A stretch of DNA of 64,000 nt from Dehalococcoidia bacterium (GTDB taxonomy: Bacteria > Chloroflexota > Dehalococcoidia > Bin125): the NCBI GenBank assembly GCA_965208665.1, contig CBDBPH010000001.1, positions 131,045 to 195,044 on the forward strand. Reading direction: 5' to 3'. The notes under the pieces were generated by a model. The model was not told the origin of the DNA and made no database searches. It saw only the letters and a list, made by a program, of their open reading frames with translations. The translations under genes were made by a program, and so were the position numbers. Shown here piece by piece: positions 1 to 39,127 of this stretch (positions are counted from its first letter, which is position 1; each line of letters begins with the position of its first letter).

Positions 1-1011
1 TGCCGAGCGCGACGGCGCAGGAGACGGGGTTCGCGCCCCAGGTGATCCCGCCGATTGTGCCGTCCTTGCCGGCCTCTTCGAAGGTCCTCGCGATTTCGTC
101 GTTGACGAGCGTGGCAGCGATAGGTGAGTAGCCGGATGAGATCTGCTTGGCGGTGGTCATGATGTCGGGCTGGACGCCGAAGTGGTCCATGCCGAACCAC
201 TTGCCGGTGCGGCCGAAGCCGTTAATGACCTCGTCGGCGATCAGCACGATGTCGTGCTTGTCGCAGATCTCGCGCAGGGTCTGCCAGTACTTCGGGTCGG
301 GGACGTAGCTGCCGTTGGCGGTGGAGATCGGCTCGGCGATGAGCGCCGCTACCGTGTCGGGTCCAGCGGCCGCCACGACATCCTCGATTGTGCGCGCGCA
401 GAAGACATCGCACTCGGGGAAGGTCTTTTCGTAGGGGCAGCGGTCGCAGTTGACGCCGGGCACGTGGATCGAGCCTGGCACCAGCGGCTCGTAGGGCGCG
501 CGCATCGAGTAGGTGGCGGCGTTGACCGAGAGCGCCCCGGCGGTCTGGCCGTGGTAGGAACCGATTCGCGAGATCACCTTGAACTTGGCGGCGTTGCCTC
601 GGATCTTGTGGTACTGCTTGGCGATCTTGAGGGCTGTTTCGACGGCTTCGGAGCCGCCGTTGACGAAGACGGCCTTGCGAATGTTCGAGGGGGTCAGTTC
701 GAAGAGCTTGGTCGCCAGGTTGACGGCAGGCTCGGATGCGTAAGCGAAGGTGTTCTGGTAGGCGAGTTGCGACATCTGCTCATGGGCGATGTCGGCGAGT
801 TCCGTGCGGCCATGTCCGACCGCGTTGAGCCAGAGACCGGACATGGCATCCATGTACTCGCGTCCCTGGTCGTCGTGCAGGAAGATTCCTTCGCCCTTAC
901 GGATGACGAGCAGTCCATCGTCGGCCGCGAGGTCGGCGTGCGACTGTGTGGGGATCCAGAGGTGATCCAACGATTGCTTGCGTAGCGCTTCCTGGGTCGG
1001 GGTGGTCATCG
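1..1011 (-). CDS. class-III (omega-type) PLP-dependent aminotransferase; N-terminal ~337 aa, C-terminus beyond window edge
   Basis: Minus-strand translation from ATG (rc of 1009-1011) reads MTTPTQEALRKQSLDHLWIP...DEVINGFGRTGKWFGMDHFGVQPDIMTTAKQISSGY, i.e. the DEVxxGFGRTG and T-x-AK(Lys) PLP signatures of class-III aminotransferases. The + strand ORF 182..985 is its antisense shadow. Confidence 0.75.
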
Positions 1012-1131
1012 AAGGTCCTGTCGTGCCATGGGTTGTTCCGACAGGATAGGCGCATCGCAGCGAGGGCGAAGATGAGTCAGAGGGGAGGGCAGCCACAAGG
1101 GCTGCCCCTACAGCGTCAAGATGTCAATGCA

Positions 1132-1737
1132 TTAGCGTTGGGCGGAGGTGGGGGCGCCTCGGGCGCGGAGGTCGTAGGCCATGACGACGAGGTCTCTCAG
1201 GCGACCGCTGCGGTCCATGACCCAACCGGGCAGGGTCGCGACGGCCTGGAAACCGAGCGACTCGAACACTGCCTGCGCACTGAGCTGATCGTGGGTCATG
1301 CGGGCGGAGATGCGCTCGAGGCCGATGGAGTCGGCGATGGCGAAGATCTCTTCGGCCAGGAAGCGACCGAGTCCCTGGCCACGGATCTGAGAGTTGACGG
1401 TGACGCGGATTTCGCCGATGTGGTCGGTCCAGCCGGCTTCGTTGTGGACCAGTGACGCCTCGCCGACGATGTCTCCGGCGTCCACGGCGAGGACGGTGGT
1501 GGTGCGGTGTTGGGCGATGTTCTCGAGCCAGCGGTCAACGACGCCTTCGTCGGTGATGTCCCAGGGCAGGTAGAGCAAATCGTCGCGCGAGAGGGAGCGG
1601 GCGAAGGCGAGGAAGCGGGCCTTGTCGGCGGGAGACATCAGGCGCATGTCGATCTCGCGGCCGCCGCGCAGGGTGGCGCGGCTGGGGTATCGCCGTGCAA
1701 TCAGGGCGGCCTGGCGGGCGGATGCATCGGTGGTCAT
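1132..1737 (-). CDS. GNAT family N-acetyltransferase
   Basis: Sequence ...IRGQGLGRFLAEEIFAIADSIGLERISA... is an acetyl-CoA-binding Q/RxxGxG/A motif typical of GNAT. ATG at 1737 (MTTDASARQAALIARRYP) chosen over the upstream low-complexity extension. Confidence 0.7.
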   Translation of the reverse strand: MTTDASARQAALIARRYPSRATLRGGREIDMRLMSPADKARFLAFARSLSRDDLLYLPWDITDEGVVDRWLENIAQHRTTTVLAVDAGDIVGEASLVHNEAGWTDHIGEIRVTVNSQIRGQGLGRFLAEEIFAIADSIGLERISARMTHDQLSAQAVFESLGFQAVATLPGWVMDRSGRLRDLVVMAYDLRARGAPTSAQR

Positions 1738-1866
1738 CGTTCTACTCCCGTTCCAAAGACCTGGCGAGTCGCGTTCTCTCGATCGGACATCGCATTCGCG
1801 TGCGCGCAGAGTATCACTGCGCGGTGCCATTGATTGCAACGGCGCTGCGGATTTGCGGGGAGGAAA

Positions 1867-2412
1867 TCAGCTTGACGGCGGACGCCAACGAGTGGTTTTG
1901 GGCTGTAGCCGAGCGCCTCGGTCAGCGGCGGAGTCGGCTTCGATCGTGACGTCGTCGCCCGGATACATGGTCCCCTGTCGGACGACGCGGGCGTAGAGGC
2001 GGGATCGGCCTGGATGGGTGGCCTGGTTGATGCGGTTGAAGTCGCCGTCGCGGAAGCAGTGGCCGATGATGCGGCAGGGGGCGGCGTAGGAGGTGATCTC
2101 CACGATCACCTGTTCGCCGAGGTGCACGCGCGAGCCGGGGACGAGCTTCTTCCAGTCGATGCCGCGGATGGTCACGTTCTCTCCGGTTGCGCCGGGACCG
2201 ATCTGGTGGCCGTCGGCGCGAAGGCTGTCGAGGATTTCGGCGGCGAACAGGCAGACGGCGCGCTCGGTGCCGCCGTGGTGGCGGCGGTCGCGCTGTCGGT
2301 CCTGGGTGAGGCCATACTCGTTGACGACGGCCTCGGGGACGGCACGCTTGGGGACGCCGCCTGGTGAGACGTTGAGTTGTTCGATTCGCCCTGTGGATTT
2401 CGCTGTGGTCAT
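1867..2412 (-). CDS. MOSC domain-containing protein (YiiM-like)
   Basis: 181-aa ORF from ATG at 2412 (MTTAKSTGRIEQLNVSPGG...); ~180 aa MOSC-like beta-barrel protein with conserved Cys (AAPCRIIGHCF). Confidence 0.6.
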   Translation of the reverse strand: MTTAKSTGRIEQLNVSPGGVPKRAVPEAVVNEYGLTQDRQRDRRHHGGTERAVCLFAAEILDSLRADGHQIGPGATGENVTIRGIDWKKLVPGSRVHLGEQVIVEITSYAAPCRIIGHCFRDGDFNRINQATHPGRSRLYARVVRQGTMYPGDDVTIEADSAADRGARLQPKTTRWRPPSS

Positions 2413-2524
2413 GTCGGCTGCCTGCAACTGGTCCGCTTTGCTGCGGGTTCGGGGCGACTCTCGTGGTGGCCCGCGCCTAGGGTAATCAACCCATTGCGCA
2501 GACGGGCAACCACAAGGGTTGCCC

Positions 2525-4183
2525 CTACATCGTCGGCGATGACTCGGTGCTCCAGCCGGAAATCATCCCATCGACGTAGAGGACGCGGAGGGCGGTGAGG
2601 AGGCCGGGGAGGAGTTGGGCTCGCTGCGTCAATTCGACTCCTTCGAGGAGGTCGTTGAGGAGGTCTCGGACCGGGCGTTGGCCGTCGATTCGGGTGGCGA
2701 GCGCGGCGATGAGCACCGAGATTGGGGCTCCCTGGGGGCGGGTCGGGGAGGAGATGACGGCTCCCCACTCGAACTGTCCGTCGCCGATGACGGGCTTGCG
2801 GGCCAGGGTGACGCCCGAGGCGAGCGTGGGGACGGCGTCGAGCATCGGGCTGCGATCGGGCCAGGCGGAATCGATCAGTTTGGCCATGGCGGCGTCGCGC
2901 TCGGCGCGTTCTATTTCGACGGCGGCGACGCCTTCGACGAAGTCCGGCGGCGCTTCGCCTCGCTCGAGGACGACGCGCTCGTAGCCCTGGGGCGGTTGTC
3001 CGGCGACGGCGGCGATGAAGGCTTCGCGGGGTGAGACGTCGTTCGAGGTCTGCGTGATGCGGCGGGCTTCCCAAAAGTAGGAGTCGGAGGTGCGGTTGGA
3101 GGCGTAGAAGAGGGCGGCCATCTCTCGGAACTGGTGGTACTGCTGCATGTAGAGCTGGGTGTAGACCTCGGCGGCGGGCTCGCGCATGTCGGGATCTCTG
3201 AGGGCCGAGGTGACGTAGGCCGAGGCGAGGACGGCCGAGGACAGCGCCAGATGGACGCCGGAGGAGAAGAGCGGATCGATAAAGCAGGCGGCGTCGCCGA
3301 CAAGGATGTAGCCGTCGCCGACGAGGTGTTGTGAGGTGTATGACCAGTCGCGGATGACACGCGGCTGGTCGATCATCTGGGCCGGCTTGAGCATCGCGGC
3401 CGTGCGTCCCGTCATCGCGAGCTGGCGGCGATAGAACTCGTCGGTCGGCGCTTCGCTGAGATGCGAGCCGCCCCAGGCTGCATCGACCACGATTCCGACC
3501 GACATGATGTCGTCGGGCAGGGGGATCGCCCAGGACCATCCGTGTTCGTAGGCCTCGATGAAGATGTTGCCGGCGTCGGGCTCGGGCAGACGGTCTGCGC
3601 CGCGGAAGTAGGTGTAGACGGCCAGGTTGCGAAAGAACTCGTCGTTGACTCGCAGGTCGAGTCGGCGAGAGAGGAAGCCGTTTTGGCCGCTGGCGTCGAC
3701 GATCCAGTCGGCCCCGTGGGTCCGCGTCTCGCCGTCCGGCGATTCGACCGCCACTGACTTGCGGTCGCCCGCATCGAGGCTGACGTCGATGACGCGCGAG
3801 CCTTCGTGGACGGAAACTCCGTTGCGTTCGGCGTTGCGCAGGAGTATCTGGTCGAAGGTGGGGCGCCAGACCTGATAGGCGTGGGGATAGCTGGCGTTGG
3901 TTTCGGCGAAGTGCCAGGACCAGGGTTCCGGGTTTCGTCCCCAGACCATGGTCGCGCCGTATTTGGGGGTGAAGCCGGCGGCCTGGATCTCGTCGATGAC
4001 GCCGAGGGTCTCGAGGATGGGAATCGAAGCAGGGAGGAGGGACTCCCCGACGTGCTCTCTGGGGAAGACTTCGCGCTCGAAGATGGTGACGTCGAAGCCC
4101 TGGCGGGCGAGGAGGGTGGCGGCGGTGGAGCCGCCCGGTCCGCCTCCGATGACTATCACGGATGCGTTGGTTCCATTAGCCAT
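2525..4183 (-). CDS. FAD-dependent (flavin-dependent) halogenase family protein
   Basis: All three hallmark motifs seen in translation: GGGPGGSTAA (GxGxxG), EHGWSWAIPL (WxWxIP), FIDPLFSSG (FxxPxxSxG). ~550 aa like PrnA/RebH-type enzymes. Confidence 0.7.
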   Translation of the reverse strand: MANGTNASVIVIGGGPGGSTAATLLARQGFDVTIFEREVFPREHVGESLLPASIPILETLGVIDEIQAAGFTPKYGATMVWGRNPEPWSWHFAETNASYPHAYQVWRPTFDQILLRNAERNGVSVHEGSRVIDVSLDAGDRKSVAVESPDGETRTHGADWIVDASGQNGFLSRRLDLRVNDEFFRNLAVYTYFRGADRLPEPDAGNIFIEAYEHGWSWAIPLPDDIMSVGIVVDAAWGGSHLSEAPTDEFYRRQLAMTGRTAAMLKPAQMIDQPRVIRDWSYTSQHLVGDGYILVGDAACFIDPLFSSGVHLALSSAVLASAYVTSALRDPDMREPAAEVYTQLYMQQYHQFREMAALFYASNRTSDSYFWEARRITQTSNDVSPREAFIAAVAGQPPQGYERVVLERGEAPPDFVEGVAAVEIERAERDAAMAKLIDSAWPDRSPMLDAVPTLASGVTLARKPVIGDGQFEWGAVISSPTRPQGAPISVLIAALATRIDGQRPVRDLLNDLLEGVELTQRAQLLPGLLTALRVLYVDGMISGWSTESSPTM

Positions 4184-4265
4184 TGAGGTCAGCGTACTCG
4201 CGGATGCAGGCGTCCAATTCGGCGCCCATTGGCTTCGACGGGAGTCTCGCCCGCCGCCTGCGCAG

Positions 4266-4326
4266 GGGCCCTCACGCTCGGCTGCGTGGGGGCCCTCACC
4301 CTAGCCCTCTCCCAGAGGGAGAGGGG
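4266..4326. repeat. REP-like dispersed palindromic element, copy A (duplicated GGCCCTCAC leader + CCCTCTCCC-AGA-GGGAGAGGG hairpin)
   Basis: ggccctcacgctcggctgcgtgggggccctcaccctagccctctcccagagggagagggga; intergenic between halogenase stop and HTH gene stop; same family recurs at 23548, 26086, 34581, 38749, 39000. Confidence 0.8.
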
Positions 4327-4342
4327 AACAGAAGGAGAACCG

Positions 4343-5059
4343 CTAGGCGGCTTCGGCGCGGATTGGGGTTGGGATCTCGGGGTTTTGGCGGTCGGGATCG
4401 GTGAGTTGGTCGAGGAAGGCGAGGATTTGTTCGGTCGATTGGCCCTTGAGGTGGGGGAAGTGGTCGATGGCTTCGCTGATCAGGGCGTCCAGGTCGGTTG
4501 GATTGGGGAGGTGGACAGTTTCGGGGGCATTTTTTTCCTCCTGGGGCCGATCCGCGACGATCTCCTGCGCTGGACTGGAGATCGTGGGTTCGGGGTGGTC
4601 AGTTTTGTCAGTTTCGGAGGTGGATTCCGCTAGTTTCTGTGGTTCTGCCTGCGGTGCTTCATCAAAGAGGCCGGGTTGGTCGGGGCGCTGTTCGGCGCGG
4701 CGGTAGATGTCCTGGGCGGTGCGGCGGATCTCGCGGGCGAGCGCGTTGAGCTGGGTCTCTCGGCCCTCGCGGGCGCGCAGGTAGTCGACTGGCGTGAGCC
4801 GGTCGGTATTGGCGGCCACGTCGTCGTACTTGATGGCGAGCGAGAGGCGGAGGTGGAGCAGGTGCAGCGATTCGAGGAGGATGTCGTCCGCGGCGGCCGA
4901 GGCGATGCTGTTCCAGTGGGTCTCGACGAGCTGGAGGTCAGCGCGGACGGTGGCGTGCGAGACCTCGAGCTGCTTGGCGATCTGCCGCTGGGAGTTTCCG
5001 CGCTGGCGGAGGTAATGGACGCGGAGGCAGCGTTGTCGCCGCTTGGATGGGATGTGCAT
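4343..5059 (-). CDS. HTH domain protein (sigma-70 region-4-like / terminase-small-like HTH) with long acidic disordered C-terminal tail
   Basis: N-terminus LRQRGNSQRQIAKQLEVSHATVRADL is a helix-turn-helix; the rest is E/D/P/Q-rich low complexity. GGAAGG RBS 8 nt upstream of ATG at 5059. Confidence 0.45.
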   Translation of the reverse strand: MHIPSKRRQRCLRVHYLRQRGNSQRQIAKQLEVSHATVRADLQLVETHWNSIASAAADDILLESLHLLHLRLSLAIKYDDVAANTDRLTPVDYLRAREGRETQLNALAREIRRTAQDIYRRAEQRPDQPGLFDEAPQAEPQKLAESTSETDKTDHPEPTISSPAQEIVADRPQEEKNAPETVHLPNPTDLDALISEAIDHFPHLKGQSTEQILAFLDQLTDPDRQNPEIPTPIRAEAA

Positions 5060-5158
5060 GGTTGGGACCTTCCATGGTGCGTACAGATGTTCGGTGAGTG
5101 TAGCGAATGTGTGTTCCGTGTTGCTGTGTCGTGGTTGTCGGAGGGGGTTAACGCAGAA

Positions 5159-5190
5159 GACCCGCGCCGGAGCGCGGGTCTCTGTTGGGT
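5159..5190 (-). terminator. putative intrinsic terminator downstream of LLM oxidoreductase gene
   Basis: Perfect 9-bp GC stem GACCCGCGC-CGGA-GCGCGGGTC (5159-5180) flanked by U-rich tracts on both strands, 26 nt after the stop of the minus-strand gene. Confidence 0.4.
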
Positions 5191-5205
5191 GAACCGGGGG
5201 CGGGA

Positions 5206-6501
5206 TTAGTCGCCGGACATTGGGTCTCCGGTGAGGGTGTTGACCTCGAAGGCGCCCTTGAGGTCGAGTTCCTTACCCATCTCGCGGACGGCGGGGATGA
5301 CTTCCTCGCCGAACAGCTTGAGGGAGCGCATTGCGTCGTCGTGGTTCATGGCGCCGTCGCCGTCCCAGAAGAAGATGTTGCCGGGGCGCAGTTCTTCGAG
5401 GACGTGCCGGATCTTGGGGATCACGGTCTTCGGCGTACCGGTGATGATCGAGTACTTGTTGATCTGCTCCTCGTAGGTGCCGAAGGCGTCGGCGTCGACC
5501 TTGTCGGTCTCAGCATCCTTCTCCGCGAGGGCGGCCTTCTGCTCTTCCTGGCGTCCACGCGCGGCGGCAGCGAAGGTGCTGACGGTCGGCAGGAGCTGCG
5601 TGCGCGAAGTCAGACCAGGCAGGTTCTGCAGGTTGCTGCGAACGGTGCCCTGGTTGCCCTCGAGGAAGGGGTTGGCCGGACCGGAGATGTACTTGCGGCC
5701 GGCTTCCTCGGCCAGTTCCTCGGTCTCGTCGACGTGGACCTTGAAGAGGTAGCCGTGGTGCTCGGTCGAGGCTTCGTAGCCGTTCTCTTGCGCGACCTCG
5801 TCGTAGTAGTCGAACGACTTCTTGGTCGGCTCGATCTCGGTGGCGAGCATGACGTAGGGGTAGCGATGCTCGGCGCACCACTTGACGGTGTTGCGGCTCA
5901 TCACGCCGGGGATCCAGATCTGGGGGTGCGGCTCCTGGTAGGGGCGGGCCCAGGGGTTGACGTAGCGGTACTGGTAGTGCTCGCCTTCCCAGCGGAAGGG
6001 GCCGGGGGTGGACCAGGCCTTGACCACGAAGTCGTGGGCTTCCTGGAAGCGCTCCCAGTTGAAGGGGGCCTGGGAGTTGTGGGCGACCGACTCGCGGCCG
6101 GTGCCGCGGACCCAGCCGGTGACCAGGCGGCCACGGGAGATCATGTCGATCTCGGCCAGTTCCTCGGCGAGCCACAGGGGGTCTTCCCAAATGGGGAGGA
6201 CGTTGCCGAGCAGGACGATCTTGGCTCGCTTGGTGATGCGGGCGAGGATCGCGGCTTCGACGTTCATCACGCCGCCCATGCAGAAGGGCGTGGAGTGATG
6301 CTCGTTGAGCATCAGGCCGTCAAAGCCCATCTCCTCGGCGTAGACCTTCTCGTCGAGGTAGCGGTTGTAGAGTTCGGCGCCGATTCGGGGGTCGTAATCC
6401 CCGTTGGTCATCCCGAGGTCTTCGATCTCGCGGCCGGTCGCTCCGACCCAGCCCGATTCGAAGTCCTGGTAGGGACGTTCCGTGAAATAGCCAATGAACA
6501 T
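5206..6501 (-). CDS. LLM-class (luciferase-like) flavin-dependent oxidoreductase/monooxygenase
   Basis: 431 aa; ...FDGLMLNEHHSTPF... TIM-barrel bacterial-luciferase-family pattern; length and composition typical of F420/FMN-dependent LLM enzymes. Confidence 0.75.
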   Translation of the reverse strand: MFIGYFTERPYQDFESGWVGATGREIEDLGMTNGDYDPRIGAELYNRYLDEKVYAEEMGFDGLMLNEHHSTPFCMGGVMNVEAAILARITKRAKIVLLGNVLPIWEDPLWLAEELAEIDMISRGRLVTGWVRGTGRESVAHNSQAPFNWERFQEAHDFVVKAWSTPGPFRWEGEHYQYRYVNPWARPYQEPHPQIWIPGVMSRNTVKWCAEHRYPYVMLATEIEPTKKSFDYYDEVAQENGYEASTEHHGYLFKVHVDETEELAEEAGRKYISGPANPFLEGNQGTVRSNLQNLPGLTSRTQLLPTVSTFAAAARGRQEEQKAALAEKDAETDKVDADAFGTYEEQINKYSIITGTPKTVIPKIRHVLEELRPGNIFFWDGDGAMNHDDAMRSLKLFGEEVIPAVREMGKELDLKGAFEVNTLTGDPMSGD

Positions 6502-6610
6502 GGTTCCGGTTCCTGTTCCCTCCGGCTCAACGTGTGGATGCCCGAGCCGGTTGTACGTTCCTCAAGATGATACGTGACGGCGAATCGTCACGCCTCGATC
6601 GTCTGCTTCG

Positions 6611-7399
6611 CTACGAGCTGATGTGCGCGATCACGGCGTCGGCCGTGGCCTGGGCGTCTTCCAACTCGACGAGATGGCCGAGCCCGTCGAGCACCTGAAT
6701 CCTGCTGTTGGGCAGGCTGGAGTCGTAGACCTCGGCGACGCCCTGGGGAACGACGCGGTCGTTCTCGCCCCAGAGCAGGAGGGTCGGAGTCTCGAGTTCG
6801 GTGAGCAGATGCGGAAGCTGGCGATTGAACATCCAGGGCTTCCAGGTCAGACGCGCGGTCATCTCGCGCGAGAAGTCCCAGAGTTCCTTCAGTTCGGGGG
6901 CGGCCTCGTCGCCAAAGATGTCGGCGTAGGCCTCGTCGGAGGAGAAGCCGAGCTTCACGTACTCCTCGAACTCGTAGAAGATGACATCGGCGATCTCGCC
7001 CTCTTCGGGCTGGACGCCGGCCGCGCCGATCAGGGTGAGGCTGTCGAGGCCGTGTAGGTGCATGCAGGCGAGCTCGGCCGCAACCCAGCCGCCGAAGCCC
7101 ATGCCGACGAGGTTGGCGTCGGTGTCGATGCCCATCTTGTGGATGGCGCTGTGCAGCATGATCGCGATGTCGCGAGGGTGGCGAGCCCAAACCGGTCGCT
7201 CGGACTGTCCGTAGCCGGGCATGTCGATGGCGGTGACGGTGTGGTTTTGGGCGAGCAGGTCGTAGAACGGGATCCAACCGGGTCCTGTGGAGTGGTGCAG
7301 GACGACGATGTTGGGTCCGCTGCCGTCCTGAAGCGCGTTGACCTTGAGGCCGGAGACCTCAACGGCGATCTGTGTGTGCGTTTCTGCCTGTGTCGTCAT
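6611..7399 (-). CDS. alpha/beta hydrolase fold protein
   Basis: 262 aa; nucleophile elbow GMGFGGW (G-x-S/N-x-G-like), HHSTGPG oxyanion region, C-terminal catalytic His (GLGHLVELE). Confidence 0.7.
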   Translation of the reverse strand: MTTQAETHTQIAVEVSGLKVNALQDGSGPNIVVLHHSTGPGWIPFYDLLAQNHTVTAIDMPGYGQSERPVWARHPRDIAIMLHSAIHKMGIDTDANLVGMGFGGWVAAELACMHLHGLDSLTLIGAAGVQPEEGEIADVIFYEFEEYVKLGFSSDEAYADIFGDEAAPELKELWDFSREMTARLTWKPWMFNRQLPHLLTELETPTLLLWGENDRVVPQGVAEVYDSSLPNSRIQVLDGLGHLVELEDAQATADAVIAHISS

Positions 7400-7592: not shown

Positions 7593-10500
7593 ATGTTCGG
7601 ACTTTTTCGCCTACTCAGGCTCGCCGCCCTACGCGAATTGCGGGGCGGCTGGCTATTGATGTTCGGGGCGGCCTCGCTGCTGATCATCGCGGCCGGGCTG
7701 GTCGCGTTGCCGCTGGTCTTTCGAGCGGCCTCGGCGGACCTGGCACTTCGTGAGTTGATCGAGCAATCGCCGCGCGGGACCACCTTTGCGGACCACTCGC
7801 GCGCCTTCCGTCCGGCCAGCGCGGAGGACTTCGATTTCGTGGAGCGGGATGCGGCGGAGGCGCGCGAGCGGCATCTGGAACGGTTCCCGGGACTGGTCGG
7901 CGACACGCGGCGGATCATGGAGACTCCCGAGATCTTCGCCGGGTTCACGCGGCTCGACAACGGACTGAATGAGTCGATTCAGGCGTACCTGATGTCGTTC
8001 GAACAACTGCGGTCGAACGCGCGGCTGGTACGTGGCGATTGGGCCGGTTCGGCGGACGAGGTGGTGATCGGCTCGCGACTCGCCGAACAGCTCAACATCG
8101 ATGTCGGCAGCGTGGTCAGTTTCAGCGAGGCGATGCAGTTCGAGATCAGCGGGGTCATCGAGCCGGTTGTGGCGGATGTCACGCGGGTGCTGGCGTTCCA
8201 CTACACGGACGTCTGGTTCGAGTTGCAGTTCGATATCACGCTGGGCGGCGCCGAGGTGCCGTACTTCGGCATGTTCGCGGAGTCGGAGGCGCTGGAGCGA
8301 CTCGGGGCTCCGGTGACGCATCGGATGCGGACCGAATTGGATACGGACGCGATCAACTCCGACCAGGTTGAGGATGTGATCGAGTCTCTGGGCGCGTGGC
8401 AACAACAGCTGAGCCGACTGGAGGGTGGCTCGGCGGGCACGCTGTTGGTGGGGGCGCTGCAGTCCTTCGTACGCCAGGCGCAGTTTTCGGCCGGGCAGTC
8501 GCTGCTGGCCGGTCTGCAGATCGCTGCGGTGGCGATGTTCGGCGTCGCGCTGGTCGGCCGGGTGATGGCGCAGCGGACTCGCGTCGATCGCGAACGGCTG
8601 GCGGCTCGGGGGGCGAAGCCCTGGCAACAGGCGGGGGCGCAGGCGATGCTCGGCGGTGTCGCGGCGCTGCCGGCGGCGATTCTGGGCGCTCCATTGGCCG
8701 CGTTCGCGTTGAGTCACGCCGGACGGTTGGAGGCGGTGGCGCGTGTCTCGGGCGGTGAGCCGTTCGATACGCGGCTGACAGTGGAGGCCTGGGGCCTGGC
8801 GATTGCGGGCGCGGTGATCGCCTGGATCGCATTTGCCGCGCCGGCCTGGTTCGATGCTCGGCAGCGGACGAATGAGCGCGTGGCGCAGGGGCGGCCACAG
8901 CGGCAGTCCCTGGTGCAACGGGCCTGGCTTGATGTGGCGCTCTTGGCGCTGGCGACGGTGCTGTTTCTGCAGTTCGAGACCGAGGCGTCGGGCGGGGCGC
9001 TTGCGGCGTTTGAGTCGGGTGGGATCAATCCGGTGCTGATGTTGAGCCCGGGACTGCTGCTGCTGGGCGCGGCGTTGACGATCATGCGGCTGGCGCCTCG
9101 AGTCTGGGGCTTCGCGGCGGCGGTGCTCTCCAGATCACCGATTCCGTCGTGGCTGTATCTCGGAGTGCTCAACGTCGCTCGGAATCCGACCGGTCCGATG
9201 TTGCTGACGGCGCTGGTTGCATTCGTCACGGCGGTGGGACTGATCTCGGCGACGTATGCGTCGACGATTCGGACCGTCGAGCGGTCGCGGATCGAGTATG
9301 AGGTCGGCTCGGACCTTCGCGGCGTGTCGATCGGCGGCAACCTGTCGAACTCGACGGTGGGCCGCGTGACGGAACCACTGCAGAGCCGTCAAGGGATTAT
9401 GGCGGCAGCGGCGTATCGCGGGATCGGTGCGATCGGCGGGGACCGCGAGGGCAGCCGCGTCGTGTTGTTGGGGCTGCAGACGAGCCGGTTATCCGAGATC
9501 GTGTCACTGGATGAGGACTTGCTGGGTACGCCGCCGGACGAGTTGTTGGCGGCGATCGAACGGGAGCCGGGGCGCGCCGGTCAGGAGTTGCCGGACGGGG
9601 CAGAGGCGCTGACGGTGCGCGTGCGCAGCGATCCCGGGAACAGCAACCTTGAACTGGCGGCGCGGGTGCTCGACGCCCGTGGGCAGGTGCACATGCGGCC
9701 GTTTCGGACGAACACGGCGTCCATCGTGGACGGGGACTGGAACACGTTTCGCGCGCCGCTGGGCGGGCTTGAGCAACCGCTGCGGATCGCCGCGATCATT
9801 CTGCGGCCGCAGGCGCGGGTCGTGAGAGCGCCGACGGGCACGTTGTACATCGACGAGTTGAACGCGCAGGTGGGGGAGCAATCCGTCGCGGTGGATGCGT
9901 TTGACGAGGATGGGCCGTGGTTGCCCGCCTCGGGCGGTGCGGGCGAGGACCGGATTTCCTTCGAGGGCGGAGGGCTGCGCTACCACTGGTCGCAACTTGC
10001 GGCGAGCGATGAGCGCATCATCGTGCGCGAGTCGCCGAACCTGCCGGTCAATGCGGCGATGGATCGAACGTCGATGGAGACCGCCGATCTGAGTGTCGGC
10101 GACATTGTGCCGATCGGGGTCAGCAACGCGAATATCCCGGTGCGGATCCAGGCGGCCGTTGATTACTTTCCGACGCTCAATCCGGCGCAGGGTGGATTCC
10201 TGATCGTGGATCTGCTGGCGCTGCGGGGGGCGGCGCTGGTCGCGGCGGTTCAGGCGGTGCTGCCGATCACGGAGGTGTGGACAGCGACTGGGACCAACGC
10301 GGGGCGTCTCGTAGCGGGCGAGTTGCTGGACGATGTGTACCTGGCCAGCACGGTGCTGGACGCGGAGGCGAAGATTGCAGCGGCGGAGGAGGATCCGTTT
10401 CGCTCGGGCGGCGCGGCTGCGTTGTTCGTGGTTGGATTCATTGGCCTTCTGATCGTAGGTTCGGCGGCGTTGATTTTCACGCTCGCCGCTGCCGGCGGGG

Positions 10501-10835
10501 AGCGTGCTCGTGAGTTTGCGCTGATGCGGACGGTCGGCTCGGGTCGCGCCGGATTGACCGCGCAGGCCGCAGTGGAGGTCAGCCTCGTGTTGGCGGCCGG
10601 TGTGGCGCTTGGTTTCGGTCTGGGGCGGGCCGTGGCGGGCGCGTTGTTGGCCTTCCTTGATGTCACGGCTGAAGGGGTGGCGGCGGCTCCGCCGACTGCG
10701 CTTTCGATCGACTGGGTGCTGGCCGGTATTGGGGTCGGGGTGATCGTGTTGTGCGCGGTGCTGGGCACGACGGCGATTTCACGCTGGGCGACGGGCCGTG
10801 AAGCTGCTCCTCTGCTGCGGGAGGGGGCCGACTGA
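7593..10835 (+). CDS. giant FtsX-like ABC transporter permease (two FtsX 4-TM modules, large extracytoplasmic domains), 1080 aa
   Basis: N-terminal TM segment, two extracytoplasmic domains each followed by a 3-4 helix hydrophobic cluster; C-terminus EFALMRTVGSGRAGL... resembles the FtsX/MacB permease signature. Confidence 0.65.
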   Translation: MFGLFRLLRLAALRELRGGWLLMFGAASLLIIAAGLVALPLVFRAASADLALRELIEQSPRGTTFADHSRAFRPASAEDFDFVERDAAEARERHLERFPGLVGDTRRIMETPEIFAGFTRLDNGLNESIQAYLMSFEQLRSNARLVRGDWAGSADEVVIGSRLAEQLNIDVGSVVSFSEAMQFEISGVIEPVVADVTRVLAFHYTDVWFELQFDITLGGAEVPYFGMFAESEALERLGAPVTHRMRTELDTDAINSDQVEDVIESLGAWQQQLSRLEGGSAGTLLVGALQSFVRQAQFSAGQSLLAGLQIAAVAMFGVALVGRVMAQRTRVDRERLAARGAKPWQQAGAQAMLGGVAALPAAILGAPLAAFALSHAGRLEAVARVSGGEPFDTRLTVEAWGLAIAGAVIAWIAFAAPAWFDARQRTNERVAQGRPQRQSLVQRAWLDVALLALATVLFLQFETEASGGALAAFESGGINPVLMLSPGLLLLGAALTIMRLAPRVWGFAAAVLSRSPIPSWLYLGVLNVARNPTGPMLLTALVAFVTAVGLISATYASTIRTVERSRIEYEVGSDLRGVSIGGNLSNSTVGRVTEPLQSRQGIMAAAAYRGIGAIGGDREGSRVVLLGLQTSRLSEIVSLDEDLLGTPPDELLAAIEREPGRAGQELPDGAEALTVRVRSDPGNSNLELAARVLDARGQVHMRPFRTNTASIVDGDWNTFRAPLGGLEQPLRIAAIILRPQARVVRAPTGTLYIDELNAQVGEQSVAVDAFDEDGPWLPASGGAGEDRISFEGGGLRYHWSQLAASDERIIVRESPNLPVNAAMDRTSMETADLSVGDIVPIGVSNANIPVRIQAAVDYFPTLNPAQGGFLIVDLLALRGAALVAAVQAVLPITEVWTATGTNAGRLVAGELLDDVYLASTVLDAEAKIAAAEEDPFRSGGAAALFVVGFIGLLIVGSAALIFTLAAAGGERAREFALMRTVGSGRAGLTAQAAVEVSLVLAAGVALGFGLGRAVAGALLAFLDVTAEGVAAAPPTALSIDWVLAGIGVGVIVLCAVLGTTAISRWATGREAAPLLREGAD

Positions 10836-13800
10836 TGTCGCAGCAGGTGCCGACTCGACGCGGCGAAACGGCACGTGAGCTGGGCAGGCTAGCGCTGCGG
10901 CGTATCGCTTCGGCGCCCAGGCTCTCGACGGTGCTGCTGATCGGGGCCCTGTTAGCGGTGGGTCTGGCGAGCAGCGCACCGATCTTCATCGAAGCGGTGC
11001 GTGATCTGGGGCTGCGGCAGACACTCGCCGATGCCGAACCCGCGTCGCTGGACCTGCGATTCAACCAGACCAACGTGACCGCGGACTCGACGTCGGTTGA
11101 CGACGTTGAGTCGCTCATCCATGAGGAGGTCACGGCGGCGGCCTCGTCGCTGACGGTTGGCCGGATGACGGCTCTGCGAACCGGCGGATACATCTTGCGA
11201 ACGGACGATCAGCCGTTCGATCCGCCGGACGCCGATCACGCCACATTCGTCGCGCAGAGCGACGTGTCGGACCTCTCGGAAATCGTGGCCGGGCGTAGAC
11301 CGGAGGCAACGACCGAGCTTTTGGAGGTGATGGTCGAGCGGAGGCAGGCGCGGGAGTTTGGTCTCGACGTTGGGGACGAACGATTGGCCCAGCCGTTCTG
11401 GCTGGGGACCGAGCATGAGACTCGCGTGCGGATCGTCGGCGTCATCGAGCCGTCGACCGACCAGCGGCGTTGGTCGACGCTCGATCCGCTGTTCCTACCG
11501 ATCGCTGCGCTGGACACGGAGCTGCGCTTCTGGACCACGCGGGAGGGGATTCTCGGCATTCTCGCCGAGCAGTCGCCCACGTTGCGGCTGTCGTTACTGC
11601 AGCGGTTCCGGACCGACTTGCAGGGCGCGTCGGCGGCGGAAGCGTCGGCGGCGGCCGATTCGCTGGAGCAGATGACGCGGCGGATATCGCAGTCCGTGGA
11701 CGGGATCCAGCTGGAGACGGAACTGGTCGACACGCTGGTCGGGTTCAGCCAACGTTTCCAGTTCGCCCAGTCGACGCTGTTGATGATCGTGCTGCAGCTC
11801 GTGGGCGCGGTGTTGGTCTATGCGGTGGTGGCGTCGGCGATGCTTGCCGAGCAACGCACCGAGGACACGGCGTGGCTTCGGTCGCGAGGCGCCCGGCAGC
11901 GCGACGTCGCGGTGATGCACATCGTTGAGGCCGCGATCCTGACGGCTCCGGCGATATTGCTGGGACCGTTGATCGGCATGGGTCTGGTCAGTCTGCTGGG
12001 ATACGTCCCACCTTTCGACGAGGCGCTGGCCGCTACGGGCGTGGGTCCGTTCCTGCCGGTCTCGCTGCCGATCGAGTCGTGGTACCTGGCGATCGGTGCG
12101 GGCGCGCTGGCGCTGCTGGCTCAGGCGGTGCCGACCTATCGAGCGACTCGTCAGACGATGGTCACGACCCGTCGGGAACGTGGTCGGCCGCCCGCGTCGT
12201 GGACGCAGCGCGCCTTGATCGACGCGGCCGTGGCGGCGCTGGGAGCTCTGCTGATCTTTGAACTGCAGTGGGCCGGTGACCCGATCGACTCGCCGTTGGT
12301 CGGTGAGACGCGGCTGGACTGGTTGGCAGTTGCGACACCGACCGTGTTGCTGTTCGTGGTTGGGCTGATCGTGCTGCGCTTGTTCCCGCCGACGATGCGA
12401 CTGCTGGCCCGAGTTGCTTCGCCGTGGCGCTCGCTGACGCTGTTGATGGGCGCCTGGTATCTGGGGCGCACACCGACGCACTACGCGCGGACGGTGTTGT
12501 TGCTCACGATCGCGGGTGCGCTGGCGGTGTTTGCGGCCTCGTTCCGGACGACGCTCGACACGTCCTACCACGATCGCTCGCTGCATGCAGTGGGTGCGTC
12601 GGTGCGTCTGACCGAGCCGGTCTCGGACATCGTTCCGTATGAGGAGATTGAGGAGGCCAGCGGCGCATCGGTGGCACAGATTCGGCGGATTGTGGGGGCG
12701 TTCGAAGGGGACGAAGACTCAGGTCGGCTGCAGATTGCGGCGTTGGACTCGGCGGTGGTCGCCGATCAGTTGGCCGAACAAGGGGCTGATTGGGCGTTGC
12801 CGCCGGCGGACCTGAAGGAGATTGCGATAGTGCCGAACGAAGTGCAGGGAACGGTGATTGACGACTTCGGCGGCCGCCTGGAACTACAGATTGCAGCTGC
12901 ACGGCTCGGGCAGGAGACGGTGATCGGCATCAAGGTGCTGGACGCCATTGGGCGCTATTGGTGGTACGCCATCGACACGCTCAGCCCCGCTCCGGTTCAA
13001 GATGATCCGGAGTGGCTCACCATCTCCAGCCGCTTGACGGAGGAACCGGCCGCCTATCTGCCACTGGAGGGCGCGCGGCTGATCCAGGGACAAAGCAGGT
13101 TCAGCCCGACCGTGGCGGAGCGTCCAGTCGCGCCGCTGACCCTGGTATCGCTTGACCTGGCGATCACCCGCGCCGCGGGAGAGATCGTACTTGGCGAATT
13201 GACCTACACGAGGCGTGGTGAGCGCTCCCTATTGGCCGACTTCAGCTCAGGACGCTGGGAGGCGACGCCGTTGGAGGTCGGCGAGGAACCACTGGATTTC
13301 CTCGTCGTCACCGAAGAAGGCGCACGCTATCGGTGGAATGCGATTCCATCATCTCTGCGCGGGGTGCGCTACATCGCAGACCGGGGGCCATTGCCGGCAC
13401 TGTTCTCGGCGCAGGCCATCGAACAAGGCCGGCTCAACATCGGCGAGACGGTCAAACTGCGCATCGGGCCGTCCTCGATGACGTTTCTGGTCGCGGGACA
13501 GTTTGAGACCTTCCCCAGCTACGATCCGCAGCGCGACGATCCGCTTGTGTTGATCGATCGGGCGGCGTTCATCGATCGGCTGTATGGCAGCGCGGCGGCG
13601 GGCGTGGCCCTGGCCGTGAGCAACGAACTGTGGGCTTCGGCCTCGCTGCAGCGGTGGGGCGGACTATTGGTCGAGTACGAGCTGCCGAGCCAGAGCGATG
13701 GCATCGCCACGATCGAGAGCGCCCGGGAGGAGCTTGCGGCCGACCCGCTGATCGTCGCTTCGTGGAATGGCGTCTTCATCGGCGCGCTGGCGGCGGTGGC

Positions 13801-14182
13801 GATCGCGTCGGCGTTCGGGCTGGTGGTGTTGACAGCCGTGACGGCGCAGGCGCGGCGGGTGGAGTTCGCCGTCTGTCAGAGCGTCGGGATGAGCATGCGC
13901 CAGATCCTGGGTCTGATCGCGCTGGAACAACTGATCATCATCGCGATTGGACTGGGAGCAGGGTTGATCGTGGGGACGCAGGCCGGCGCGGTGTTGTTGG
14001 ACTTCTTCGCGCTCACGCCGGATGGTCGGGACGTGGTGCCGGCGCTGCAGTTCATCATCGACTGGCCGGGCGTCGGCATCCTGTTCGGGGCGTTGGCGGC
14101 GCTGTTCGCGCTCAATCTGGGCGCGTTCCTGTGGTTCCTGAGGCGGATCGAGCTACACGGGGCGCTGCGGCTGGCGGCGTAG
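10835..14182 (+). CDS. giant FtsX-like ABC transporter permease, paralogue, 1115 aa
   Basis: Start overlaps the previous stop (ATGA). Same architecture; C-terminal RRVEFAVCQSVGMSMRQIL... FtsX motif. Confidence 0.65.
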   Translation: MSQQVPTRRGETARELGRLALRRIASAPRLSTVLLIGALLAVGLASSAPIFIEAVRDLGLRQTLADAEPASLDLRFNQTNVTADSTSVDDVESLIHEEVTAAASSLTVGRMTALRTGGYILRTDDQPFDPPDADHATFVAQSDVSDLSEIVAGRRPEATTELLEVMVERRQAREFGLDVGDERLAQPFWLGTEHETRVRIVGVIEPSTDQRRWSTLDPLFLPIAALDTELRFWTTREGILGILAEQSPTLRLSLLQRFRTDLQGASAAEASAAADSLEQMTRRISQSVDGIQLETELVDTLVGFSQRFQFAQSTLLMIVLQLVGAVLVYAVVASAMLAEQRTEDTAWLRSRGARQRDVAVMHIVEAAILTAPAILLGPLIGMGLVSLLGYVPPFDEALAATGVGPFLPVSLPIESWYLAIGAGALALLAQAVPTYRATRQTMVTTRRERGRPPASWTQRALIDAAVAALGALLIFELQWAGDPIDSPLVGETRLDWLAVATPTVLLFVVGLIVLRLFPPTMRLLARVASPWRSLTLLMGAWYLGRTPTHYARTVLLLTIAGALAVFAASFRTTLDTSYHDRSLHAVGASVRLTEPVSDIVPYEEIEEASGASVAQIRRIVGAFEGDEDSGRLQIAALDSAVVADQLAEQGADWALPPADLKEIAIVPNEVQGTVIDDFGGRLELQIAAARLGQETVIGIKVLDAIGRYWWYAIDTLSPAPVQDDPEWLTISSRLTEEPAAYLPLEGARLIQGQSRFSPTVAERPVAPLTLVSLDLAITRAAGEIVLGELTYTRRGERSLLADFSSGRWEATPLEVGEEPLDFLVVTEEGARYRWNAIPSSLRGVRYIADRGPLPALFSAQAIEQGRLNIGETVKLRIGPSSMTFLVAGQFETFPSYDPQRDDPLVLIDRAAFIDRLYGSAAAGVALAVSNELWASASLQRWGGLLVEYELPSQSDGIATIESAREELAADPLIVASWNGVFIGALAAVAIASAFGLVVLTAVTAQARRVEFAVCQSVGMSMRQILGLIALEQLIIIAIGLGAGLIVGTQAGAVLLDFFALTPDGRDVVPALQFIIDWPGVGILFGALAALFALNLGAFLWFLRRIELHGALRLAA

Positions 14183-16310: not shown

Positions 16311-16682
16311 ATGACGGTCGCGGCGATCGCTTCGATTGCGCTCGGCGGCGCGGCCGGATCCGTGCTGCGCTACGTCCTCAATCGCTGGATCGGTCAGCCC
16401 GACGGCTTGCCGCTGGGGATCCTCGTGGTGAACCTGAGCGGGACGCTGGTGCTGGGACTTGTGGCGACACTGTTCCTCGAGCGACTCGGGGTGTCGGACA
16501 ACATGCGTCTGGCGATCACGGTGGGGTTGCTGGGCGGATTCACCACGTTTTCGACGGTATGGCTGGACACGCTGCATCTGCTCAACGGCGGACGTTGGGT
16601 ATGGGCGTTGACGAATCTGCTCGTGTCGGCGGTGGGCGGATTGGCGGCGGCGTGGCTGGGCCAGCAGCTCGCTCGTCTTTAG
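16311..16682 (+). CDS. crcB: fluoride-specific ion channel FluC/CrcB
   Basis: 123 aa, 4 TM, GGAAGSVLRY...GLLGGFTTFSTV (GxxTTFSTF signature of CrcB); starts 4 nt after the dut stop. Confidence 0.85.
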   Translation: MTVAAIASIALGGAAGSVLRYVLNRWIGQPDGLPLGILVVNLSGTLVLGLVATLFLERLGVSDNMRLAITVGLLGGFTTFSTVWLDTLHLLNGGRWVWALTNLLVSAVGGLAAAWLGQQLARL

Positions 16683-18339: not shown

Positions 18340-20439
18340 ATGTCCCTCGTCAGCCGTCCGTCCAGGCGATTCGGCACCCGGTCGGCGCATCTCTTCTGGC
18401 GTCTGCCGCTGGTCGGCTGGGTTCGCGTCCCGCGCAACCTGGCGCCACTGTTGCTTGCGGTGGCGGTCGGCCTGGCAGCGGGATTCGCGGCAGTGGCGCT
18501 GAGCGCGCTGGTCGACGGTCTGACCATGGTGTTCGACGAGCTCACGTCGCTGCTCGACAATCTGGCAGGCGGCTGGACGCTGATGCTGGTTCCGGCGATC
18601 GCGGCGATTCCGGTGGCGTTCGTCGTTTCGCGGGTTGCCTCGGAATCGCAGGGCGCCGGGGTGCCTTATGTCATGGTGGCAGTGGAACGCGCCGGCGGAT
18701 TCGTGCGACCGATCATTGCTCCGGCCAAGCTGGTCGCGACCGGATTTACGCTGGGCGGCGGCGGCGCCGCAGGACGCGAGGGTCCGATTGTCCTGATCGC
18801 CGCGTCGCTGGCCTCGACGATCGGACGGCTGGCGAAGCAACCGTCCGACATGCTGGTCTTGATGGTCGCGGCGGCGGCGGCGGGCGGAATCTCGGCCACA
18901 TTCAACACCCCAATCGCCGGCACATTCTTCGCGCTCGAGGTGGTGCTGCGGCGGTTCAACGTGCGCAACTTCACGATTGTGGTCGTTGCCGCGGTGGTCG
19001 CGAACATCGTCGCGGTGGCGTTCTACGGGGACTCGGCCGGACTCGATCTGCCCGACTTCGACATCAACAGCAGTTGGGAACTGTTCCTGCATGCGATCGT
19101 CGGCATCTCCGCGGCGATCGCCGGGATTCTCTTTGTGCGCACCCGCTTCTTCACCGAGGACGTGTTTGAGTTTCTGGGCGTGTCGATGTCGGTCCGGCCG
19201 ATTCTGGGTCTGTTCGGCGTCGGTGTGCTGGCATTGATCGAATCGAACATTCTGGGGTCGGGGCTGGACCAGATCCGGATCTTTGCCGAAGGTGAGACGG
19301 CCGTCTCGACGCTGGCGATCCTGATGGTGCTCAAGCTGATTGCGGCGTCACTAACGATTGGATCGGGCGCATCGGGCGGGGCGTTTGCTCCGCTGCTGTT
19401 CGTGGGGGCGACGTTGGGCGCACTGATGGGCGCGGGCTTCGAGTCGGCGCTGCCGAGCATCGTGGGGCCGACCGGTACGTATGTCGTGGTCGGCATGGCG
19501 GCGGTCTTTGCCGCCGCTGCGCGCGCGCCGTTGACCTCGCTGTTCATCGTTTTCGAGCTCAGCGGATACTCGCTGATCCTGCCGTTGATGACAGCGGTGG
19601 CGCTTGCCGCGGCGCTGGCCCAGCTGTTGACCCGCGACACGATCTACAACGTCCGCCTGCGCCGAGCCGGACTGGATGTCCAGGAGGAATCTGCGCCATC
19701 GCCGCTGGACGATCTGACCGTGGCGGCGACGATGCGCACGGACACACCGATCGTGTCGAGGCTGGCGACGATCGAGGATCTGGCCAACGCGATGAGCCAA
19801 TCGCGCGGGAACGTGGTGGCGGTGGCGGACCAGCGCAACCGCTTCATCGGGTTGGTGACGGCGACCGACGTGGCGTCGGCGGTGGAGCGCGGCGAGATGG
19901 ATCGGCGGGCGTTTGATCTGGCGGTGGTCGCGCCGGTCTTCGTGCACCCCGACGACAACCTGCGCTATGCGCTCTCGGTTCTGGTCGATCACGATGTTCG
20001 CCAGTTGCCGGTCGTCGCCCGCGAGGACGAGACGCGCTTGATGGGCATGCTGACGCAGCGGGATGTCCTGCGCGAAGTCGCTCAGCCGAGTGACCGGGAC
20101 TCGGGTCAGCGGTCCGCCCCAGCACCGGTCCGGCGATTGGTCGGGGCGATTGAGATCGAGGCGCGCGTGGAACCGGGTTCACAGGCCGAGTCGAGCATGG
20201 TCTCGCAGTTGCCGCTACCTGAGGCGTCCGTCATTACGGCGATCCACCGACGCGGTGAAATCGTGATCCCGCGAGGGAACGTGAAGCTGTTGGCGAATGA
20301 TCTGGCGATCGTGTTATCGGTGCCGCCGGAGGAGGCGACGGTGCGGTCGCTGTTCATCAACCACTCGACACAGTCGCGGAACAACTGGTGGTTCTTGCCG
20401 CACGCTCCGCCGTCGCCCAACGACGAATCGCAGCGTTGA
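18340..20439 (+). CDS. ClC-family chloride channel/antiporter with C-terminal CBS pair and TrkA-C-like domain
   Basis: ClC selectivity motifs GAGVP, GREGPIVLIAASL, GGAFAPLLFVGA; C-terminal CBS-like repeats and RGEIVIPRGNVKLLANDLAIVL (TrkA-C). Confidence 0.8.
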   Translation: MSLVSRPSRRFGTRSAHLFWRLPLVGWVRVPRNLAPLLLAVAVGLAAGFAAVALSALVDGLTMVFDELTSLLDNLAGGWTLMLVPAIAAIPVAFVVSRVASESQGAGVPYVMVAVERAGGFVRPIIAPAKLVATGFTLGGGGAAGREGPIVLIAASLASTIGRLAKQPSDMLVLMVAAAAAGGISATFNTPIAGTFFALEVVLRRFNVRNFTIVVVAAVVANIVAVAFYGDSAGLDLPDFDINSSWELFLHAIVGISAAIAGILFVRTRFFTEDVFEFLGVSMSVRPILGLFGVGVLALIESNILGSGLDQIRIFAEGETAVSTLAILMVLKLIAASLTIGSGASGGAFAPLLFVGATLGALMGAGFESALPSIVGPTGTYVVVGMAAVFAAAARAPLTSLFIVFELSGYSLILPLMTAVALAAALAQLLTRDTIYNVRLRRAGLDVQEESAPSPLDDLTVAATMRTDTPIVSRLATIEDLANAMSQSRGNVVAVADQRNRFIGLVTATDVASAVERGEMDRRAFDLAVVAPVFVHPDDNLRYALSVLVDHDVRQLPVVAREDETRLMGMLTQRDVLREVAQPSDRDSGQRSAPAPVRRLVGAIEIEARVEPGSQAESSMVSQLPLPEASVITAIHRRGEIVIPRGNVKLLANDLAIVLSVPPEEATVRSLFINHSTQSRNNWWFLPHAPPSPNDESQR

Positions 20440-23547: not shown

Positions 23548-23585
23548 GGGCCCTCACCCTCACCCTCTCCCTCGGGGAGAGGGGA
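23548..23585. repeat. REP-like palindromic element, copy B
   Basis: gggccctcaccctcaccctctccctcggggagagggga between two convergent genes (stops at 23544 and 23627). Confidence 0.8.
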
Positions 23586-34564: not shown

Positions 34565-34639
34565 GGTTGGGTTTGGTCGAGGCCCTCACCCTAGCCCTCT
34601 CCCTCGGGGAGAGGGGACTGGAGATGGTTGGGTTTGGTC
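34565..34639. repeat. REP-like palindromic element, copy D, flanked by a 14-bp direct repeat GGTTGGGTTTGGTC
   Basis: ggttgggtttggtc-gaggccctcaccctagccctctccctcggggagaggggactggagat-ggttgggtttggtc; immediately after the tam stop; left border of a lower-GC accessory segment. Confidence 0.8.
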
Positions 34640-37665: not shown

Positions 37666-37685
37666 GTGGCTGAGTGAGGGGAGGG

Positions 37686-38720: not shown

Positions 38721-38744
38721 GGATCTTCCCGGGACTGGGGTGCT

Positions 38745-39110: not shown

Positions 39111-39127
39111 GGGTGAATGGAGTTGGG

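Follow-up and report, generated by a model that had tools for sequence, protein, structure and literature searches.

A putative CmlS/CndH-type halogenase family of Dehalococcoidia whose genes commonly follow a luciferase-like monooxygenase gene

The Dehalococcoidia bacterium assembly GCA_965208665.1 carries, on contig CBDBPH010000001.1, a run of seven consecutive minus-strand genes that occupies the first 7.4 kb of the 64,000-nucleotide stretch analysed here (the window). The fourth of these genes (2525-4183) encodes a 552-residue protein, called FDH here for flavin-dependent halogenase, which by its sequence is of the CmlS/CndH type. FDH scores 154.2 bits against the Pfam family Trp_halogenase (PF04820), for which the cut-off is 21, and it belongs to a family in which a gene for a luciferase-like monooxygenase (LLM) is the neighbour most often kept. 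Flavin-dependent halogenases are sought for biocatalysis and as pointers to natural products that carry halogens.

Followed in the direction of transcription, the run begins with an alpha/beta-fold hydrolase (ABH) of 262 residues (6611-7399; Pfam Abhydrolase_1/6) and with LLM, a protein of 431 residues that carries an NEHH motif (5206-6501; Pfam Bac_luciferase, 118 bits). A GC-rich hairpin (5157-5182, minus strand), which is a probable terminator or attenuator, lies roughly 20 nt past the LLM stop codon and precedes an open reading frame (ORF) of 238 codons with a weak N-terminal helix-turn-helix (HTH) signal (4343-5059). The spacer between this HTH-like ORF and the FDH gene holds an element resembling repetitive extragenic palindromic (REP) sequences (4293-4313), and the distal part of the FDH gene (2528-2878) encodes a C-terminal domain of predicted winged-helix fold. 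Downstream of FDH lie genes for a MOSC-domain protein of the YiiM type (1867-2427; Pfam MOSC, 70 bits; PDB entry of YiiM, E = 1.8e-9), a GNAT acetyltransferase (1132-1737; Pfam Acetyltransf_1/3/7) and a class-III (omega-type) aminotransferase (2-1009; Pfam Aminotran_3, 272 bits), the last of which is cut by the window start so that only its N-terminal 336 residues are encoded.

A previous, sequence-only reading of this DNA had described seven co-directional genes with these named domains, and all of them are present. Pfam and NCBIfam support every gene label, with Pfam domains well above their gathering scores, except that of the HTH-like ORF, whose HTH matches are sub-threshold (E about 1e-3). 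The GNAT frame is open to position 1839, but an ATG at 1737 that is preceded by GGGAG is favoured as the start because it yields a protein of 201 residues, the length of its relatives (orthologs have 200-201 residues). The full-length aminotransferase ortholog in the related locus L001 has 455 residues, and the nearest relatives in the PDB are amine/omega-transaminases.

Catalytic motifs and relatives of the halogenase

The catalytic domain of FDH comprises residues 1 to about 400 and is roughly 50% identical, over residues 5-401, to CmlS, the chloramphenicol halogenase of Streptomyces venezuelae (PDB 3I3L). Its GxGxxG motif reads G13GGPGG18 and is kept in 79 of 81 homologs, the remaining two being N-terminally truncated gene calls. 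Residue K74 (codon 3962-3964) aligns with K71 of CmlS, the catalytic Lys equivalent to K79 of PrnA, an assignment for which the offset of 20 in the CmlS chain numbering was checked. Likewise, E47 aligns with E44 of CmlS and D279 with D277, the WxWxIP motif is found as W216-S-W-A-I-P221, and the FxxPxxSxG motif as F301-I-D-P-L-F306-S-S-G309 (codon of F306, 3266-3268). Residues K74, E47 and D279, together with WxWxIP and FxDPLFSxG including F306, are invariant in all 81 FDH homologs, down to about 48% identity.

The sequence-only reading had noticed the GxGxxG, WxWxIP and FxxPxxSxG motifs, which can be read directly from the protein, and had given the last of them in PrnA as FLEPLESTG. That motif was correct, as the PDB sequence of PrnA has these letters at residues 341-349, and E346, the Glu of PLES, occupies the position of Phe306 in FDH. 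The further proposal that Glu is replaced by Phe as in halogenases of the phenol/pyrrole type also stands, since F306 is shared with CmlS (FTDPLFSQG) and with CndH (FVDPVFSSG). Public annotation of FDH relatives reads ‘tryptophan 7-halogenase’, a label that is contradicted by Phe306 at the position of PrnA E346 and is wrong for this family. PrnA and RebH share with FDH the PF04820 superfamily, GxGxxG, WxWxIP, the Lys and the FxxPxxSxG framework, but differ in having Glu346 where FDH has Phe306, in scoring only about 30 bits, and in their tryptophan-binding C-terminal module, which FDH lacks.

A phmmer search of PDB sequences ranks CmlS first over the catalytic domain (314 bits), followed by CndH (291 bits) and FasV (248 bits), and then by the pyrrolyl-carrier halogenases Mpy16, ChlB4 and PltA, with the tryptophan halogenases at about 30 bits. 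For an AlphaFold model of FDH built with 20 homologs (pLDDT, the predicted local distance difference test, 81), the best Foldseek match is CmlS with a TM score of 0.71 over 565 columns, CndH and FasV rank second and third, and all further top matches are halogenases. Two findings had been named beforehand as arguing against halogenase function, namely loss of the Lys and grouping with non-halogenating monooxygenases. K74 is invariant in the 81 family members, and the nearest solved relatives (CmlS, CndH, FasV, Mpy16, ChlB4 and PltA) are true halogenases. The residues retained support assignment of FDH to the phenol/pyrrole/alkyl, that is non-tryptophan, type with its Lys in place, and FDH would be expected to work as CmlS and CndH do, as a member of their branch.

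The comparison with these enzymes also reveals differences. CmlS shares with FDH both the catalytic residues listed above and the plan of a catalytic domain followed by a C-terminal winged-helix lobe, but the window has no chloramphenicol-type cluster; FDH lies instead in a housekeeping context with LLM as its partner. CndH (the chondrochloren halogenase, a ‘variant B’ enzyme; PDB 3E1T) and FasV (PDB 8ZOP) have the same motifs, including FVDPVFSSG, but lack an ordered domain equivalent to FDH residues 436-552, and they sit in natural-product clusters of the polyketide or non-ribosomal peptide synthetase (NRPS) type, of which the window has none. FasV, together with a reductase for flavin adenine dinucleotide (FAD), chlorinates a free aromatic polyketide (PMC11420778).

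No exact copy of the window halogenase was found in public assemblies, where the nearest entry (P0001) is 99% identical. More than 80 relatives have 70-99% identity and thousands have less, nearly all of them from metagenome-assembled genomes (MAGs) of Chloroflexota. Our literature search, whose coverage is incomplete, found no paper on the FDH family, on the pairing of FDH with LLM, or on an FDH fused to a domain of the kind described below.

The C-terminal domain of FDH

Residues 436-552 of FDH are conserved across the family. In the phmmer search no PDB sequence aligned with them, and a Pfam search with residues 400-552 at E values up to 10 returned nothing, PqqD included. When modelled alone (pLDDT 89), the domain forms a beta-sheet followed by three helices, and this predicted model has the three-stranded sheet and three-helix winged-helix fold by which RRE/PqqD domains are recognized, where RRE denotes the recognition element of peptides that are made on the ribosome and modified post-translationally (RiPPs). 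The model resembles RRE/PqqD-like folds, and the same fold occurs in NovN and GdmN, carbamoyltransferases that act on small molecules, and in lysine methyltransferases. In the fold comparison, the winged-helix lobes of CmlS (4.9) and QhpG (4.7) fall well below the best matches.

A profile of the domain, searched against PDB sequences, matches only QhpG, at the strand that opens its winged-helix domain (V.VER+PV), and does so insignificantly (E = 0.22); the corresponding match at the level of Foldseek has E = 0.023. This placement fits the extent of the NCBIfam QhpG model, which reaches residue 500 of FDH. Against 1.84 billion representative sequences the profile returned 133 matches, a few of which are full-length family members and the rest short proteins with the domain at their C-terminus that we take to be fragments of FDH family members; none of the 133 carries the domain in another architecture. 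The predicted fold and this distribution point to a family-specific winged-helix/RRE-like module, which hints at a substrate that is a peptide, a protein or a tethered molecule. Known RREs (PqqD, TbiB1 and TfuB1) differ in that they show no sequence-level match to the FDH domain and in that no precursor or RiPP genes were found here.

No conserved small ORF that could encode a precursor peptide was found near FDH in the window or in related loci. Two candidates were considered and rejected. A 34-codon gene just past FDH (L006, 11669-11773; L007, 1906-2010) is a vestige of a cyclase-family gene and corresponds to its N-terminus; the intact gene lies downstream of FDH in about 16 other loci. An ORF of 84 codons that precedes LLM in L091 is the C-terminus of a truncated hydrolase.

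Conservation of neighbouring genes and the LLM-FDH spacer

A scan of one genome per species yielded more than 548 FDH relatives, from which 80 loci with 10-kb flanks were kept. Nearly all are from Dehalococcoidia MAGs, including SAR202 and Tepidiformales, with one Entotheonella and one Acidimicrobiaceae in addition. Neighbouring genes were tested in two ways, by searching the window proteins against these loci and by clustering all flanking ORFs de novo. Of the 76 loci with enough upstream sequence, 56 (74%) have an LLM gene upstream of FDH on the same strand, and ABH stands about 100 nt ahead of LLM in 37 loci. MOSC is directly downstream of FDH in 24 of 82 loci (about 30%), where it often abuts or overlaps the FDH stop codon. 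Among the de novo clusters, ABH is present in 30 loci and every other flanking family in at most 17 of the 80. Linkage of GNAT and the aminotransferase to FDH is confined to the window's own clade, in which FDH is at least 62% identical.

On a neighbour-joining tree of FDH, loci linked to LLM are found throughout the family, and two or three clades have lost the linkage. The linkage is also reciprocal, because with two LLM homologs as the starting point an FDH gene was found downstream of both, in one case with a ThuA gene between. These LLM-started loci lie among housekeeping genes (EF-P, exonuclease VII, NadA, GidB, ribosomal protein L33 and cytochrome oxidase). FDH and its relatives make up a single cohesive family of Dehalococcoidia (Chloroflexota) that has been inherited for the most part vertically. 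LLM itself has luciferase alpha chains as its nearest PDB relatives and matched no curated NCBIfam LLM subfamily. Its family has a great many members and varies little, the best 120 matches, from more than 100 clusters, having 76-94% identity, and it evolves more slowly than the adjoining FDH: within FDH-linked loci LLM identity is 64-99%, above that of FDH (about 50-91%).

The hairpin that follows LLM has an 11-bp stem with a predicted stability of -29.2 kcal/mol (z = -5.35 relative to shuffled sequences). Its U-tail (UCUGCGUU) is weak, and a generic terminator scan missed the structure for this reason. A GC-rich hairpin directly after the LLM stop codon is nevertheless kept in many lineages, in some of them with a proper T-run, and its stem arms change in compensatory fashion between relatives (GACCCGCGC/GCGCGGGTC, GGCCCGCTCC/GGAGCGGGCC and GGCGCCGC/GCGGCGCC). 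This conservation makes it reasonable to propose two transcription units, as the sequence-only reading had done when it suggested that a terminator hairpin may split the locus, and the hairpin, weak U-tail included, probably does separate [ABH-LLM] from [FDH-MOSC...]. A scan for sigma-70 promoters found none.

The HTH-like ORF that follows the hairpin is found in only 3 of about 16 close relatives (L001, L002 and L008). It is 57-63% identical in these loci, whereas the neighbouring genes there are 85-99% identical. Elsewhere its slot is taken by a restriction-modification gene of the MmeI type (L004), by an ORF of 92 codons (L003) or by nothing. We considered whether this ORF could encode a regulator of the locus and rejected the idea because the ORF is not conserved.

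The spacer between LLM and FDH has the character of an insertion hot spot, with the MmeI-type gene and a 132-codon ORF in L004 (6820-9998) and a ThuA-like gene in marine relatives (L088, 9343-10164). The REP-like element, GGGAGAGGGCTAGGGTGAGGG on the minus strand, occurs four times in the window (4293-4313, 23551-23571, 34583-34603 and 38752-38772), where none is expected, and the copy at 4293 helps to form a palindrome, CCCTCTCCC..GGGAGAGGG, that lies between the HTH-like ORF and FDH.

These findings bear on whether FDH is simply a stand-alone enzyme, its adjacency to LLM being an inherited gene order without shared function. We regard this as unlikely, although it has several observations on its side: the hairpin after LLM with its good T-tail in some relatives, the unrelated genes (HTH, MmeI and ThuA) found in the gap, the loss of the LLM neighbour in two or three FDH clades, and the far stronger conservation of LLM than of FDH, which suggests a different selective regime. 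It does not readily explain why LLM is the sole neighbour kept in 74% of loci when no other family but ABH exceeds 17 of 80, nor why the linkage survives between lineages whose surrounding genes differ entirely.

Another possibility, which we judge to be quite improbable, is that the seven genes together constitute a single small tailoring or xenobiotic pathway with one substrate; the sequence-only reading had proposed a locus of this kind. The genes are co-directional with short spacers, and a joint chemistry of halogenation, oxygenation, hydrolysis, N-O reduction, acetylation and transamination is plausible. The six-gene block that remains when the HTH-like ORF is left aside persists at FDH identities as low as 62%, where the flanks are partly different (L004). 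However, within the window's own clade the distant flanks (FtsX, NIPSNAP, 4HBT_3 and HhH-GPD) are conserved too, and much of the conservation of the block is therefore plain synteny. Outside that clade GNAT and the aminotransferase are absent beside FDH, the HTH-like ORF is not conserved, and the block is divided by the conserved hairpin. The seven genes are not one conserved unit. Lasting linkage to FDH across the family is limited to LLM upstream, alone or together with ABH, and to MOSC downstream in some clades, and FDH relatives lie among housekeeping genes in no biosynthetic cluster, so the earlier picture of a single tailoring or xenobiotic locus is not supported. The unit to study is ABH-LLM / FDH(-MOSC) rather than the seven-gene run.

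Interpretation of the locus and its surroundings

The reading that we favour, with moderate confidence, is of two units, [ABH-LLM] and [FDH-MOSC(-GNAT-aminotransferase)], which are parted by the hairpin and between which the HTH-like ORF has been inserted, with FDH a halogenase of the CmlS/CndH type. FDH would then act as a two-component enzyme whose FAD is reduced by a reductase encoded elsewhere. D277 of CmlS reportedly holds FAD covalently through an 8-alpha flavin link, and the equivalent D279 might bind the cofactor of FDH in the same manner. Reduced FAD, O2 and halide would give hypohalous acid, which would be led past the WxWxIP wall to Lys74 and there halogenate an electron-rich, non-indole carbon of the phenol or enol type. 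The presence of Phe306 in place of the Glu needed by tryptophan halogenases is in keeping with substrates that are not indoles, as for CmlS and CndH. The winged-helix/RRE-like domain probably helps to present the substrate, which may be a peptide, a protein or a tethered molecule. LLM, which also depends on reduced flavin, and the hydrolase would most likely act on that substrate or on one related to it.

The conserved pairing with LLM and the recognition-like domain are the points that merit follow-up. A large, uncharacterised family of flavin-dependent halogenases appears to be part of a conserved Dehalococcoidia gene set, including that of the abundant ocean clade SAR202 and of apparent sponge symbionts, and not of a biosynthetic cluster that occurs sporadically. 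Should these enzymes indeed halogenate, enzymatic halogenation would have a widespread role in Dehalococcoidia that is not one of secondary metabolism, and an enzyme with a built-in recognition domain would be on offer.

Several observations weigh against this two-unit halogenase reading. None of the members of the FDH family has a known activity, substrate or halogenated product, and the structures of FDH and of its C-terminal domain are predictions. On the NCBIfam equivalog model of CmlS (NF033113) FDH scores 363.6 bits where the cut-off is 900, and over residues 6-397 only. Because this curated cut-off and that of QhpG (given below) are both missed, FDH is best placed by its sequence as a member of the PF04820 superfamily and of the CmlS/CndH branch that is neither a CmlS nor a QhpG equivalog. 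A Pfam scan of the 47 window ORFs of at least 90 codons found no Flavin_Reduct domain, in agreement with the sequence-only reading that no flavin reductase partner is in the window, and likewise no carrier protein, polyketide synthase (PKS) or NRPS. Neither a precursor peptide nor any other RiPP gene was found in the window. For the C-terminal domain, Foldseek returned the families named above at E values of 2e-3 to 1e-1, all weaker than 1e-3, and the occurrence of the same fold in NovN, GdmN and lysine methyltransferases leaves the type of substrate unfixed. Finally, LLM and FDH are parted by the conserved hairpin and by frequent gene insertions (median gap 365 nt), which makes their co-transcription doubtful and suggests that any coupling may be looser than that of an operon.

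It is also quite unlikely, in our assessment, that FDH is a flavoenzyme resembling QhpG, LodB or GoxB that hydroxylates or halogenates a protein residue, possibly in LLM. In structure, QhpG, a peptidyl-tryptophan dihydroxylase (PDB 7CTQ), comes nearest to CmlS, and it follows the same two-domain plan (PMC7876137). The genes for QhpG and LodB/GoxB adjoin the gene of their target protein or share an operon with it (PMC7876137), and in 74% of the loci the flavoprotein gene lies immediately downstream of a gene for a conserved enzyme, an arrangement that mirrors the lodA-lodB and goxA-goxB order. In addition, FDH scores 216.4 bits over residues 9-500 on the NCBIfam QhpG model (NF049967), 157 bits on LodB (NF038171) and 105 bits on GoxB (NF038174), and its C-terminal domain begins with the V.VER+PV motif, where it aligns with the beginning of the winged-helix domain of QhpG (E = 0.22 and E = 0.023, as above).

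Yet these curated cut-offs (240 bits for QhpG and 400 for LodB and GoxB) are all missed, and direct sequence similarity, at 314 bits for CmlS but 49 bits for QhpG, places FDH much closer to the true halogenases. The halogenase Lys and WxWxIP are strictly conserved in the FDH family, and LLM keeps the NEHH of ordinary flavin-dependent LLM enzymes and does not resemble a protein with a quinone cofactor. The Pfam scan showed no LodA, GoxA or quinohemoprotein amine dehydrogenase genes in the window, and no domains of the qhp genes (amine dehydrogenase subunits and the radical-SAM maturase) were present in window ORFs or related loci. A bolder variant, about which we are very doubtful, is that FDH is a class-wide halogenase, passed on vertically, that joins a catalytic domain with its Lys retained to a QhpG/RRE-like recognition domain and acts on a ribosomal peptide or protein instead of a small molecule. 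Its target might be the adjoining LLM, which would make the two genes a maturation pair in the style of LodA/LodB that works by halogenation, in SAR202, Tepidiformales and sponge-symbiont Dehalococcoidia.

That FDH is the halogenase of a sponge-holobiont product such as a bromotyrosine-type alkaloid, made by a Chloroflexota symbiont, is highly improbable. In its favour, the MAGs that hold the nearest relatives (70-99% identity) have names suggestive of sponge metagenomes, a close relative (ACY25438.1) is a putative halogenase of an ‘uncultured microorganism’, Chloroflexi have been linked to halogenases and brominated alkaloids in Aplysina (PMC6644159), and the clade-specific transaminase and MOSC protein (of the N-O reductase type) could conceivably fit oxime chemistry. 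Against it, the same FDH family and its LLM partner occur in open-ocean SAR202, sediment, Tepidiformales and Entotheonella genomes, the window lacks biosynthetic genes, those for a PKS, an NRPS or a carrier protein included, and the context is one of housekeeping genes.

The remainder of the window is ordinary chromosome, with genes for DnaE, MTHFR, respiratory complex I subunits and proteases. Rfam gave no matches over the whole window, so no fluoride or other riboswitch was detected. Divergent from ABH are two genes for FtsX-type permeases of 1080 and 1115 residues (7593-14182, plus strand), which are syntenic in close relatives and absent from this position in L004. A CrcB fluoride-channel gene (16311-16682, plus strand) lies 9-13 kb from FDH together with a gene for a 699-residue CLC-type halide channel or antiporter with CBS and TrkA_C domains (18340-20439, plus strand), and in L004 genes for CrcB, DUF309-dUTPase, DinB_2 and DUF4389 directly adjoin the ABH-LLM genes. 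The large subunit of a two-component flavin monooxygenase of the HpaB family is encoded at 54457-55908 (plus strand), likewise with no reductase partner in the window. A fused DNA methylase with an Mrr-like restriction domain (35015-36805, minus strand) adjoins two stretches of lower G+C content at about 36000-42000 (0.58-0.60, compared with about 0.65), which suggests that this region is an acquired island.

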